Source of the DNA: Nannocystis radixulma
GTDB taxonomy: Bacteria > Myxococcota_A > Polyangia > Nannocystales > Nannocystaceae
Direction of reading: 5' to 3'
Length of the DNA stretch: 64,000 bases
NCBI RefSeq assembly: GCF_028369095.1
Contig: NZ_JAQNDN010000024.1
Location: 409,350 to 473,349 of the forward strand
Of this stretch, positions 40,259-62,122 are shown one piece after another. The notes under the pieces are model-generated. The model was not told the DNA's origin and ran no database searches. It saw only the letters and a list, made by a program, of their open reading frames with translations. A program made the translations under genes and the position numbers. Position 1 is the stretch's first letter; each line of letters opens with the position of its first letter.

Positions 40259-40560
40259 TCATACGGACAACGCCGCGGAGAGACAGGGACGTCCACCCGG
40301 CGACGAGCGGGGCCCGAGACGGTCGTCGCAGGCGGGCGCGGGGCGGCGGATTTGGGACGCCGGTGGGACGGAGACGCGGTTCAGCGCGCGCAGGCGCACA
40401 GTCCTCCGCGCGCGCCATGCTCCTGTCCGAAAGGCCATCCTGTCCGAAGAGACAGCGCCGAGCACGTGAACCGGTAGGGGCCCGCCGAGCGAGGACCCAA
40501 GTCCGCCGCCCCGCGCCCGCCGTCACCCGGTTCTTCCGGGCCCCGCGCCTCCGGACAGCC

Positions 40561-58946: not shown

Positions 58947-59090
58947 GGCGAGGCTGAACGGGGCGCGAAGGTGGGCGCGCGGGGCCGGCGATCGTGGATC
59001 GGCGGGGGCCTGATGAGCTGGTCGATGGGACAGGTGGCGATCGGGGCGCGATGAGCAGTTCGCCGCGCGGAGGGAGTGGCGTGGGGGCTT

Positions 59091-59345
59091 CGCTGATTGC
59101 CGGATGCGCCTCGCGGGGGGTCCGGGGATGGCTCGGCCGCCAGTTCAGCGTGCCGATGACCCCGACTTCGTCGTGGTCATCTCGCCCTCGTATTGGCGGC
59201 CGAGCCATCCCCGGACCCCATGCACGGCTCACCCGTGAGAAGCCGGCCCGCCGTGGTGGGCTTCGATGAGGGATGTCTCTTGGGGCAGGTCGTCGGCGCC
59301 TGTTCGACGGCCTGGTCGGCCGCCGAACAGACGCTTTCTCGCGGA
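59091..59345 (+). repeat. Copy A of a ~255-bp structured element with a perfect 25-bp-stem hairpin (59119-59143 pairs with 59197-59221, 53-nt loop); MITE-like or a structured ncRNA
   Basis: About 90% identical to the inverted copy at 61751-62000. The stem is ggggtccggggatggctcggccgcc ... ggcggccgagccatccccggacccc. Confidence 0.7.
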
Positions 59346-59402
59346 CATGCCGGCGGGCCTCGTGGCGCGGCGAATTCCCGCGACGAGCGGGACGACTGCG
59401 CT

Positions 59403-60284
59403 TCATCCGCCGATGAGGCACACACACATCGGGTAGCCGTCCGCATTGCCGCACACGTCTCGTTTTTTGACGCCCAGTGCGTCCAGCGCCTCGTGAACGC
59501 TCTCTTCGGAGAGGAAGTGGTTGTGGCGAATGGTCGCTATTTGCAGCGGCGAAGAGGCGCCGTTCGCGGCCAGGGCGTCGAGGATCTCCGCCGTCACGAG
59601 CGCCTCGTTGCCCTCCAGCGTGAGCCGTTCGATCGTCGTGAGAGCGGCGAACCCGGCCAGGTCGGCGAGGGCGAGGTTGTTCGCCGCCGGCAGCGTGTCG
59701 GCGCAGAAGCCGATCCGCATCCAGACCAGGGTCTCGAGCGAATCGAAGCGAATCGCCTCGGCGGCTGGATTGCCGTAGAACGTGAAGCCCACGGTCGAGC
59801 GAAGCCGGTCGAAACCGATGGCCGTCCTGAGATTGGTATTGTCGACGATCAGGATCGACTGGACGTTCTGGAGGTTCTCGAGCCCCTCGGTGGACTCGAG
59901 CCGGGTGGTGCCACGAATGTCCAGCGAGCCGTCGATCGTATGGAGGCACTTCAGGAAGGACAGGTCCCGCTGATCGTCATCGCCGAGGAGGATGCGGAGA
60001 TCGCCGCGGACGAGTCCGATGTCTTCCAGGCTCGCCAGATTGGGTCCCGGCCAGACCACGAGATCGCCGTCGTGGACGCGGCCGCAGGGCTCGGGCTCGC
60101 CGGTCGTCGGTTCGCTCGTCGTCGCGGCGCTCGTGGTCTCGTGCTCCGTCGAGCTGCCGCCGGCGTCGTCCTGGGAAGGCTCGTCTCCGCATGCGGCGAC
60201 GAGCAGGTGGAGCGCGAGGAGCGATGACTCGAGGCGAGCCAGGGCCCATGCGCCGCCGCGCAGGAGCGAGCGAGAGCGAGACAT
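59403..60284 (-). CDS. Secreted lipoprotein with leucine-rich-repeat/receptor-L-domain-like repeats
   Basis: LLVAACGDEPSQ lipobox and repeated L-x-x-L-x-x-N/L motifs. Confidence 0.55.
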   Translation of the reverse strand: MSRSRSLLRGGAWALARLESSLLALHLLVAACGDEPSQDDAGGSSTEHETTSAATTSEPTTGEPEPCGRVHDGDLVVWPGPNLASLEDIGLVRGDLRILLGDDDQRDLSFLKCLHTIDGSLDIRGTTRLESTEGLENLQNVQSILIVDNTNLRTAIGFDRLRSTVGFTFYGNPAAEAIRFDSLETLVWMRIGFCADTLPAANNLALADLAGFAALTTIERLTLEGNEALVTAEILDALAANGASSPLQIATIRHNHFLSEESVHEALDALGVKKRDVCGNADGYPMCVCLIGG

Positions 60285-60310: not shown

Positions 60311-60349
60311 TCTCAGGGCTTCGAGGACATGTCGGCGATGTCGCGCAGG
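60311..60349. repeat. Palindromic repeat units (about 3) in the promoter region of the 59403..60284 gene
   Basis: tctCAGGGCttcgagGACATGTCggcgATGTCGCgc; centres at 60315 and 60329. Confidence 0.5.
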
Positions 60350-61575
60350 ACGTCGTCCGGCGTGCTCGGGTAGGCGGTCTGGCGGCGGAACCACTGCTCG
60401 AGCGCCTCGGCGAGCGGGAGGCCGTTGTCGGCGGCGTAGCGGCGCCAGAACGCGCCCCACCAGCCGGGAGGCTCGCGCTTGCCGGCGCCGCCGTCGTCCC
60501 ACTCGGTGACGCGGCCGGTCTCGCCGGCGTCGACGAGGGAGCCGACGGCGGTCGCGTCGGCGAGCACGCGCTCGAGCTGGGCGCCGATGTCGACCAGGAC
60601 GTCCTCGTCGAGCTGGCCGTCGCTGGTGGCCTTGTAGAACTGCACGGTGACGCGGATCGGGAAGCGTTCGTCGCGGACGATCGGCAGGTCGTCGATCTCG
60701 GTGAACGGGCCCTCGACGTCGCCGTGGCCGATGATGGCGGGCTCGACGACGGAGATCCCGCGCTCCTGCTCCATGACCATCCAGTCCAGGGTCGGCCCGA
60801 ATTGACGCAGCGGGACCTGGATCAGCAGCACCGCGCTCGCGGCGGCCGGGCTGTTACAGGCTGTCTCCGAGGATATGTGTTCGCTCGCACGGGTGGCGGT
60901 GAACGGGGCCCGCTGTCCGGCCTGGTTGAACAGCAGGCGCTGACCCAGGGCGCCGGCGACGGCGAAGGCGTCGCGGTGGTTGTCGACGACGGTGGCGCTG
61001 GTGCCCTCGCGCGTGGCGAGGATCGCCAGCACGGCGGGGTCGCGGCGGCGCGATTGATAATTGAAGATCACCGGGGTGAAGGTGGCGAGGCCGGCGCGCG
61101 GGACCGGGAGCAGACACGCCTGCGGGCTGACGAGGACGTGGGTGTCGCGCGGAGCGAGCAGGGAGCCGACATCGCCCGCCCAGCCGTCCGGACGGGTGAG
61201 GTGGGCGCGCAGGTCGGTGAGGTACTCGCGCAGGCCGATCGTCCGCAGCGGCTCGCCGCGCTCGTTGCCGACGTGCAGGCGCACGACGTCGATCGGCAGG
61301 TCGCCGGTGCGGTCGGCGAAATTTGGAAAACGGATCACCGGCATGCACGTCAGCCAGGGCCGCCCGCGGCTGCGACTCTGCACCTGGATCGTCATGTCGC
61401 TGATGTTCGGGCCGACCATGGAGCCCTTGTAGCGCGCGGTGTCCTCCCAGGTGACGTGCAGGAGGTGGAGGCCGAGCACGTCGAGCTGCGCCCGCGTGGC
61501 GACGTCGATCCGCGGGCGGGCGACCGCCTGCACGACCTCGTGATAGGCCTCGTCCGGATCCTGCGCGGAGCTCAT
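60313..61575 (-). CDS. Hypothetical protein (420 aa) of unknown function
   Basis: Start MSSAQDPDEAYHEVV; balanced composition. Two palindromic units lie in-frame inside it (...SEHISSETAC...). Confidence 0.5.
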   Translation of the reverse strand: MSSAQDPDEAYHEVVQAVARPRIDVATRAQLDVLGLHLLHVTWEDTARYKGSMVGPNISDMTIQVQSRSRGRPWLTCMPVIRFPNFADRTGDLPIDVVRLHVGNERGEPLRTIGLREYLTDLRAHLTRPDGWAGDVGSLLAPRDTHVLVSPQACLLPVPRAGLATFTPVIFNYQSRRRDPAVLAILATREGTSATVVDNHRDAFAVAGALGQRLLFNQAGQRAPFTATRASEHISSETACNSPAAASAVLLIQVPLRQFGPTLDWMVMEQERGISVVEPAIIGHGDVEGPFTEIDDLPIVRDERFPIRVTVQFYKATSDGQLDEDVLVDIGAQLERVLADATAVGSLVDAGETGRVTEWDDGGAGKREPPGWWGAFWRRYAADNGLPLAEALEQWFRRQTAYPSTPDDVLRDIADMSSKP

Positions 61576-61750
61576 GACGTCGGCCAGCGTACCAGCTCGC
61601 GCGGCGCTACAGGATGCTGCGCCGCGCGGGCGTCGTCGCGCTTGCGAATGGCCGGACGGACGACTGGCCATTCGCATATCGCCGCTCGGACTCGACCTGC
61701 GTGCGCGAACGCGAGTGTCGCCGCTTCGCCACGGGAGATGACCCGCCGTT

Positions 61751-62000
61751 TGGGACGCCAGAAAGCGTCTGCTCGGCGGCCGACCAGGCCGACGAGCAGG
61801 CGCAGCCGATCTGCGCCGCAGGATGTCCAGCATCGAAGCCCCCGTCGGCGGGTCGGCTTCTCACGGGTGAGCCGTGCCAGGGGTCCGGGGATGCCTCGGT
61901 CGCCAATACGAGGGCAAGATGACCACGACGAAGTCGGGGTCATCGGCACGCTGAACTGGCGGCCGAGGCATCCCCGGACCCCCCGCGAGGCGCATCCGGC
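61751..62000 (-). repeat. Copy B (inverted orientation) of the ~255-bp hairpin element
   Basis: Reverse complement aligns with 59091-59340 at about 90% identity. The hairpin is preserved, with one compensatory pair (G-C to C-G) and one G.T wobble. Confidence 0.7.
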
Positions 62001-62029
62001 AATCAGCGAAGCGACTGCAGCCGGTCTCC

Positions 62030-62122
62030 GGGTCTCGAAACGTCTCCATGTCTTGGAGGACATGCCCTATCGAGCATGCTTCATTAAGCATGTCGAATCG
62101 AACATGCTCGATGCGACATCAG
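62030..62122. repeat. 14-bp-period palindromic repeat array (6-7 units) immediately downstream of the permease gene and next to hairpin-element copy B
   Basis: ATG centres at 62048, 62062, 62076, 62090 and 62104, exactly 14 bp apart: tCCATGTCtt / gGACATGCCc / gaGCATGCTt / aaGCATGTCg / gaACATGCTc. Confidence 0.7.

Follow-up and report, generated by a model that had tools for sequence, protein, structure and literature searches.

Conserved base pairing in a structured palindromic intergenic repeat of a Nannocystis clade

Among the closest described systems are the ERIC or IRU sequences of enterobacteria and the Correia or NEMIS sequences of Neisseria—imperfect palindromes of 100–160 bp that lie between genes in either orientation and are transcribed. 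Their RNA hairpins alter the stability, processing (by RNase III/E), or termination of the flanking mRNAs; both kinds occur in tens to hundreds of copies, and Correia sequences carry defined terminal repeats and TA duplications. REPINs, described for example in Pseudomonas fluorescens SBW25, are doublets of REP sequences that form hairpins and are mobilised by RAYTs (PMC3116915), and in the extract of PMC3733652 drawn on here a GTAG or CGTC tag ends the REP stem. For Nannocystis or other myxobacteria, our literature search found no description of a structured intergenic repeat family.

The DNA analysed here (the window) is a stretch of 64,000 nucleotides from Nannocystis radixulma, in which the original prediction had described a long, perfect stem and a second copy whose differences preserve pairing. 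Two points were absent from that account: the hairpin is no free-standing feature, forming only the 5′ half of a non-coding repeat of about 288 nt (family length about 290–305 nt), and the second copy, B, is the reverse complement of the first, A.

Anatomy of the repeat

The core stem had been given as 25 bp around a 53-nt loop, with arms at 59119–59143 and 59197–59221. The hairpin is real and its pairing perfect, but these positions are off by 2 nt and, as ranges, mutually out of register; the quoted arm GGGGTCCGGGGATGGCTCGGCCGCC occupies 59117–59141 and its complement 59195–59219, and the full perfect stem is GC-rich and comprises 26 bp with a loop of 51 nt. In 30 first-order Markov simulations of the window (72% G+C, loops of at most 100 nt), the longest perfect stem measured 12–16 bp in 29 cases, and the remaining simulation contained no stem of at least 12 bp. 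The window itself has perfect stems of 26 bp in copy A and 20 bp in copy B, with nothing above 14 bp elsewhere, and the 26-bp stem is far above chance expectation. Folding of the whole 288-nt element gives z = −7.9 on the + strand and z = −10.2 on the − strand. Taking the + strand of copy A as the sense strand, the parts of the repeat are as follows:

59087–59374, + strand: copy A, about 288 nt (inverted-repeat pair, A/B pairwise alignment, seven-copy alignments, nhmmer E = 4e-93)
61725–62012, − strand: copy B, reverse complement of A (inverted-repeat pair, alignment, nhmmer)
59087–59243, + strand: extended imperfect palindrome of 157 nt forming the main hairpin domain of copy A, with GCTTC/GAAGC as its closing sequence (RNA, DNA, and consensus folds)
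61856–62012, − strand: main hairpin domain of copy B (folds)
59117–59142, + strand: 5′ arm of the 26-bp core stem, copy A (stem search)
59194–59219, + strand: 3′ arm of the 26-bp core stem, copy A (stem search)
61880–61905, + strand: core-stem arm in copy B (26 bp, one T.G at 61900/61962, C-G swap)
61957–61982, + strand: partner arm of the copy B core stem
59155–59181, + strand: apical stem-loop GATGACC-C-CGAC-TTC-GTCG-T-GGTCATC, invariant in 7/7 copies (alignment columns 69–95)
59245–59253, + strand: 5′ strand of a 9-bp long-range helix, GGCCCGCCG (columns 159–167 with 266–274)
59351–59359, + strand: 3′ strand of the same helix, CGGCGGGCC (columns 159–167 with 266–274)
59296–59339, + strand: second stem-loop and invariant TTTCT, copy A (columns 210–248)
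61765–61803, − strand: second stem-loop, copy B (alignment)

The second stem-loop (59296–59334 in copy A) is enclosed by the long-range helix and has 17 stem positions, 15 of them Watson-Crick, around a 5-nt loop. Before the GCTTCGC start lies a weakly conserved 5′ extension of about 18 nt, which is degraded in the window strain (about 59069–59086). Copies A and B are 86–90% identical overall and face outward with their hairpin halves.

Other long hairpins also occur. One, unrelated to the repeat, lies at 40331–40521 in an apparent gap between long open reading frames, with 37-nt arms that are 84% complementary and 117 nt apart (predicted stem about 26 bp, fold z = −4.9), and such long, GC-rich hairpins between genes may be widespread in the window's genome. 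Another follows a homologue of a gene discussed below (L125 1967–2162; 21-nt arms, 95% complementary, 154 nt apart); kinship of this hairpin with the element's arm was rejected, the matches (18/26 and 34/58) being at background level.

Copies, loci, and the bracketed gene cassette

Copies A and B are both present, in synteny, in Nannocystis sp. SCPEA4 (L120) and N. pusilla (L121), where a 420-aa protein encoded between them is 96% and 89% identical, respectively, to that of the window. Together with a copy at a third locus (M), this makes seven distinct copies in three clades. Scanning metagenomes with a 20-mer from the invariant apex yielded one further true copy (L129), 88% identical and the same in sequence as that in L136–L139, from a collection that is not exhaustive—L136 has this copy too but was missed by the scan. 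At the third locus the element sits between convergent methyltransferase and YCII genes; the orthologous space in SCPEA4 is only 200 nt long and has no element, and we read the pair of sites as a presence/absence polymorphism. A fourth, partial copy was found on a Logan contig of another relative, which ends 27 nt into the element; it is 25/27 identical and retains the 5′ extension, with a GH15 gene 68 nt upstream. Each of the four loci lies between genes, 30–180 nt from a gene's 3′ end, in either orientation.

Further searches for copies were negative within their respective scopes: nhmmer over 1.15 Mb of collected DNA, a covariance model over the window and 16 loci (0.24 Mb), and scans of plasmid, phage, and viral collections. 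The 64-kb window holds two copies and the other loci examined from the same clade none. Distant homologues of the 420-aa gene (L122, L125, L126) stand in other contexts and lack the element, as do the methyltransferase homologues L140–L142. A genome-collection scan with the short and unspecific pattern GTCCGGGGATGNCTCGG gave 119 chance matches and no true copy, and a six-frame peptide search for reading frames mis-called on other copies found nothing and is unreliable, having missed a known 202-aa frame. That frame appears in public ENA annotations as a 202-aa "gene", an open frame running across the non-coding element (L137 4462–5070; L138 1654–2262).

The surroundings of the copies show some irregularities of their own. 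In L136 (1405–1679), the inner (3′) end of the third-locus element abuts 6.9 tandem copies of a 40-nt unit, which contains the CGGCGGGTCC motif of the long-range helix and whose first repetition takes in the methyltransferase stop codon. Beside copy A, about 30 nt outside the end of the hairpin are almost unalignable between the window (58947–59086) and SCPEA4 (L120 11742–11886), where the flanking genes are 98–99% identical; this divergent tract suggests local instability next to the palindrome.

In the window, copies A and B flank two genes on the − strand:

60313–61575, − strand: first bracketed gene, a 420-aa protein of a widespread uncharacterised family
59403–60284, − strand: second bracketed gene, a predicted 293-aa lipoprotein with a Receptor-L / LRR-like domain

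The 420-aa protein has more than 4,000 database matches, many of them at least 50% identical, including proteins labelled Planctomycetota, Kofleriaceae (Myxococcota), Eremiobacterota, and the cyanobacterium Lyngbya. It gave no sequence match in Pfam, NCBIfam, PADLOC, or PDB and has no YxDD motif, and its beta-rich AlphaFold model (pLDDT 68.6) gave no significant fold match in PDB. We rejected the idea that it is a transposase with the repeats as its ends, as the gene is widespread and lacks flanking inverted repeats in three other genomes. In its leader, at 61644–61675, lies a 10-bp hairpin, GCGAATGGCC(N12)GGCCATTCGC, which is kept upstream of the N. pusilla orthologue in a leader that is otherwise only 71% identical. 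Between an ArsP-like gene and copy B (about 62045–62112) there is an unusually A+T-rich stretch with many CATG palindromes (CGAGCATG...CATGCTCG; CATGCTT-AATG-AAGCATG), partly conserved in SCPEA4 and N. pusilla, which looks like a candidate operator or promoter region.

The number of genes between the copies differs among the genomes, with one in SCPEA4, two in the window, and three in N. pusilla. SCPEA4 retains a remnant of the lipoprotein gene (L120 11264–11455) with an internal deletion of about 640 nt, and N. pusilla has an additional 665-aa gene with an IgGFc-binding domain (L121 7628–9870), which has no homologue in the window and whose start lies some 20 nt inside the inner boundary of copy B. 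This variable content, the bracketing of a cassette by outward-facing hairpin halves, the extra gene starting so close to a copy, and the presence of a predicted lipoprotein gene are what one would expect of DNA-level boundary or recombination sites, through which the cassette would be inverted or exchanged, either as phase variation of the lipoprotein or as a hot spot for gene gain and loss. We nevertheless give this explanation the slimmest of chances: the cassette points the same way in each of the three genomes, the A-type and B-type inner halves have never been swapped as inversion would do, no recombinase is encoded within 10 kb, the third and fourth loci are single copies rather than pairs, and the loss in SCPEA4 is a deletion inside the lipoprotein gene and not at a repeat. 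On the first three of these grounds, an invertible DNA switch was rejected.

Covariation, conservation, and strand preference

The differences between the arms of copies A and B are exactly those that the original prediction had described; from two copies it had a single compensatory pair to go by. At that position GGCTC/GAGCC becomes GCCTC/GAGGC and a G-C pair is exchanged for C-G. The C-to-T change that it had read as a wobble is a G.U pair on the + strand of the window (T61900/G61962) but a C.A mismatch on the − strand. A covariation analysis over the collected copies, which the prediction had proposed, bears out its expectation that double changes keep pairing: with seven copies in three clades, and about six or seven independent events underlying the counts, double changes preserve pairing at 6–10 base pairs (10 in the sense and 6 in the antisense consensus structure). 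Every register-shifted structure gave 0–1 such pairs, and 0/500 column shuffles reached the observed value.

Individual positions illustrate the pattern. The swapped pair reads G-C, A.C, G-C, C-G, C-G, A-T, and A.C across the seven copies; the pair adjoining it is C-G in six and T-A in copy B of N. pusilla. Two more pairs of the main hairpin are switched in copy M (C-G to G-C and G-C to C-G). Outside the hairpin, the A copies have G-C at the second pair of the long-range helix where the B and M copies have A-T, and pair 217/241 of the second stem-loop is T-A in four copies and C-G in three. Within the hairpin domain, 13% of paired columns vary compared with 26% of unpaired ones, and 8/15 variable paired columns make up four reciprocal pairs. 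Two single-sided changes in B copies give C.A mismatches on the gene-sense strand.

The element as a whole is 94–98% identical between the three species, compared with 57–92% for the immediately flanking non-coding DNA and 93–95% for four-fold degenerate sites of the 420-aa gene. Between A and B in the three genomes, the hairpin half is 95–96% identical and the 3′ half 72–79%; because the A-type and B-type 3′ halves are distinct in all three genomes, the similarity of A and B does not reflect recent homogenisation.

One could instead suppose a functionless DNA palindrome whose arms are kept complementary by template switching or intra-palindrome conversion, so that the covariation would be mutational in origin. 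Copy B of N. pusilla speaks for this process, with adjacent pairs CC/GG changed to AT/AT—four clustered substitutions in a hairpin half that otherwise differs from the window's B at only two positions. Template switching yields such clustered compensatory changes (PMC8794818), and the double swap looks like one templated event (template switching or conversion) better than like four independent hits; in the same vein, three different copies show the same variant base, A, at column 45. As an account of the whole element, we regard a functionless palindrome as highly improbable. Template switching would erase asymmetries, and purely mutational upkeep is disfavoured because 7/7 copies share the same bulges, internal loops, and fixed G.U/A.C positions; unpaired loops are conserved too, the long-range helix and second stem-loop also covary, and the excess of conservation over the flanks extends through all 288 nt, including the parts that are not palindromic. 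The seven-copy covariation, the constraint on paired columns, and the conservation relative to flanking DNA support the claim of selection on secondary structure, and these sequence comparisons show that purifying selection on both pairing and sequence keeps the element in place.

The two strands do not fold equally well. As RNA, the main hairpin is more stable in the antisense direction in 7/7 copies, by 0.2–9.8 kcal/mol, because several A.C oppositions become G.U pairs there; a fold of copy A with DNA parameters again favoured the antisense strand, and in the second stem-loop two mismatches likewise become G.U pairs on that strand. Since a cruciform would be symmetric, this asymmetry argues for a single-strand function (as RNA or single-stranded DNA), and these predicted stabilities point to a strand-specific, single-stranded role rather than a symmetric cruciform. 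However, the better-folding strand carries the genes at locus A but lies opposite them at locus B, and at the third locus it can be counted either way.

We rejected the hypothesis that the element is coding: there is no conserved reading frame, the differences examined among A, B, and M change the peptide in open frames, and the remaining frames carry stops. Neither direction has a conserved promoter-like sequence upstream, and no convincing sigma-54 or sigma-70 promoter was found in the 5′ extension by scan or by eye, which fits read-through transcription and not an independent gene. A terminator scan returned no site, TTTCT being below the threshold of 5 T in 8, although the second stem-loop followed by TTTCT looks like a candidate terminator in the sense direction.

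That resemblance is the starting point for a different explanation, in which A, B, and M would be paralogous, independently transcribed sRNA genes of about 255 nt in the sense direction, terminated at the second stem-loop and UUUCU. The layout is gene-like—a structured domain, then a GC-rich stem-loop, then the invariant TTTCT—and loops and bulges are strongly conserved in sequence, as seed or protein-binding regions would be; the sense direction is also that of the upstream gene at 3/4 loci. Against sRNA genes stand the missing conserved promoter and the weak conservation of the 18-nt extension, the covarying long-range helix, whose 3′ strand lies beyond the putative terminator, and the better pairing of both hairpins on the antisense strand. 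Moreover, trans-acting sRNAs do not usually contain a perfect 26-bp duplex, which RNase III would accept as a substrate. Rfam release 15 contained no matching family, returning only plant-miRNA-type and RsmW noise (23–26 bits against gathering thresholds of 52–80, E 0.04–0.4). On this balance we hold sRNA genes to be unlikely.

Possible roles and relation to known repeats

The reading we tentatively prefer, with a probability of roughly 40%, is that the element folds as a single strand inside the transcripts made from neighbouring genes and acts in that form. What the comparisons show is that copies have spread to several intergenic sites and have since been retained there by purifying selection; how they spread and what they do at the RNA level is inferred. 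The very stable hairpin might stop or pause transcription, or alternatively block 3′-to-5′ exonucleases or serve as a double-strand RNase site; it could thereby keep neighbouring transcription units apart, as REP, ERIC, and Correia-type repeats are described to do, and the cassette's two genes in the window would form an expression unit with an inverted copy at each end. Counting against a transcript hairpin are the inconsistent orientation of the element relative to flanking genes, the single-sided C.A changes in B copies, the negative result of the scan for a canonical U-tract terminator, and the small number of independent events among seven copies.

A more elaborate proposal, which we consider a long shot, is that the inverted pair acts jointly. 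If the cassette is transcribed on one strand, the 5′ and 3′ UTRs of its mRNA are complementary over about 290 nt (86–90%, and 95% in the hairpin half), and the UTRs might switch between local hairpins and a long-range duplex that would close the mRNA or expose it to RNase III. At the DNA level, the pair could instead mark the boundaries of a cassette slot within which genes are gained and lost. If true, either arrangement would give bacterial gene cassettes a kind of cis-architecture that has not been described for them.

A further point against the transcript-hairpin reading is that a perfect 26-bp stem with invariant loops exceeds what simple protection of 3′ ends would need, which hints at a sequence-specific partner protein; such a putative protein could equally be a transposase acting on DNA. 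On a rival account the element is mobile and still active but non-autonomous, of the REPIN/RAYT, IS200/IS605-derived, or MITE kind, its hairpin being the single-stranded DNA substrate of a transposase encoded elsewhere and its pairing being kept because only hairpin-competent copies get copied. Three or four unrelated intergenic loci in either orientation, a site filled in one lineage and empty at the orthologous position in SCPEA4, a Logan contig that breaks off inside the element as assemblies do at repeats, and a strand-asymmetric stability that holds in 7/7 copies regardless of gene orientation are all in keeping with mobility, and 26-nt inverted arms with a spacer and compensatory changes match reports of REPINs (PMC3116915). 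Orthologous copies are, however, far better conserved than their flanks, which selection for transposition does not predict; the distinct A-type and B-type 3′ halves in three genomes show no concerted evolution; neither a target-site duplication nor any clear inverted repeat at the ends of the 288-nt unit was found at any locus; spacer and apex do not vary, whereas in REPINs the spacer is the less conserved part; the arms have neither a GTAG nor a CGTC tag; the metagenome scan added only one locus; and no transposase was found within 10 kb. We judge an active mobile element a realistic contender, if on the unlikely side.

Comparison with individual families sharpens this picture. Like the msr-msd of myxobacterial retrons (Mx162, Ne144), as presented in the extract of PMC6868368 used here, the repeat is a stem-loop-rich, non-coding locus with compensatory changes in its stems; it differs in occurring as inverted duplicates and at unrelated loci, and a retron was rejected since no RVT domain was found among the genes called within 10 kb (L120, L121). 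With integron attC sites it shares imperfect palindromes that fold as a single strand and flank strain-variable cassettes, whereas attC sites conserve structure without sequence, stand in direct orientation, and have IntI nearby; the copies here are inverted and 85–98% conserved in sequence, no integrase lies within 10 kb, and attC was rejected as well.

The resemblance to ERIC and Correia repeats lies in an imperfect palindrome at intergenic sites in either orientation. Unlike them, the Nannocystis element belongs to another phylum, has no sequence similarity to them, is known from four loci, lacks a target duplication, and is palindromic only in its 5′ half.

With REPINs it has in common that it is non-coding and intergenic in either orientation, persists vertically, and shows frequent compensatory changes (PMC3116915). 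The REPIN plan of two inverted repeats of about 20–25 nt forming a hairpin is also seen here, with arms of 26 nt and a spacer of 51 nt. The element is, however, about three times longer than REPINs (288 nt versus about 70–110 nt) and possesses, beyond the main hairpin, a long-range helix and another stem-loop. The less conserved part of REPINs is the spacer, whereas here the apical 27 nt are invariant in 7/7 copies and the variable positions include arm position 45/119. Its arms are not themselves short palindromes. REPINs come in tens to hundreds of copies per genome with a cognate RAYT gene, while the copy number here is apparently low and no RAYT is known for the element; direct reading of the sequence found no GTAG or CGTC tag at either end of the arms GGGGTCCGGGGATGGCTCGGCCGCCA. 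As in MITEs, the unit is small, non-coding, dispersed, and polymorphic (three full loci, one partial, and the empty SCPEA4 site). Its hairpin domain ends in GCTTC/GAAGC, and the full 288-nt unit has only a 7-nt terminal repeat, GCTTCGC, in B copies only. No direct repeat flanks A, B, or M as a target-site duplication would, in a filled/empty comparison that is blurred by the tandem array and sequence divergence.

Taken with these comparisons, the element falls under the broad kind of structured palindromic intergenic repeats, within no named family, and is specific to a Nannocystis clade. Since it resembles known bacterial palindromic repeats, the finding is a modest one. What is unusual is that an apparently low-copy element is four to six times better conserved in place than the non-coding DNA around it, which makes it suited to asking what palindromic repeats do for their host as opposed to for themselves. 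It also provides a clean case of multi-base compensatory change, possibly by template switching, and accounts for two artefacts of public assemblies, a broken contig and a false gene of 202 aa. Among described systems it is best read as a new repeat family, structured and intergenic, of the REPIN/ERIC/MITE kind.
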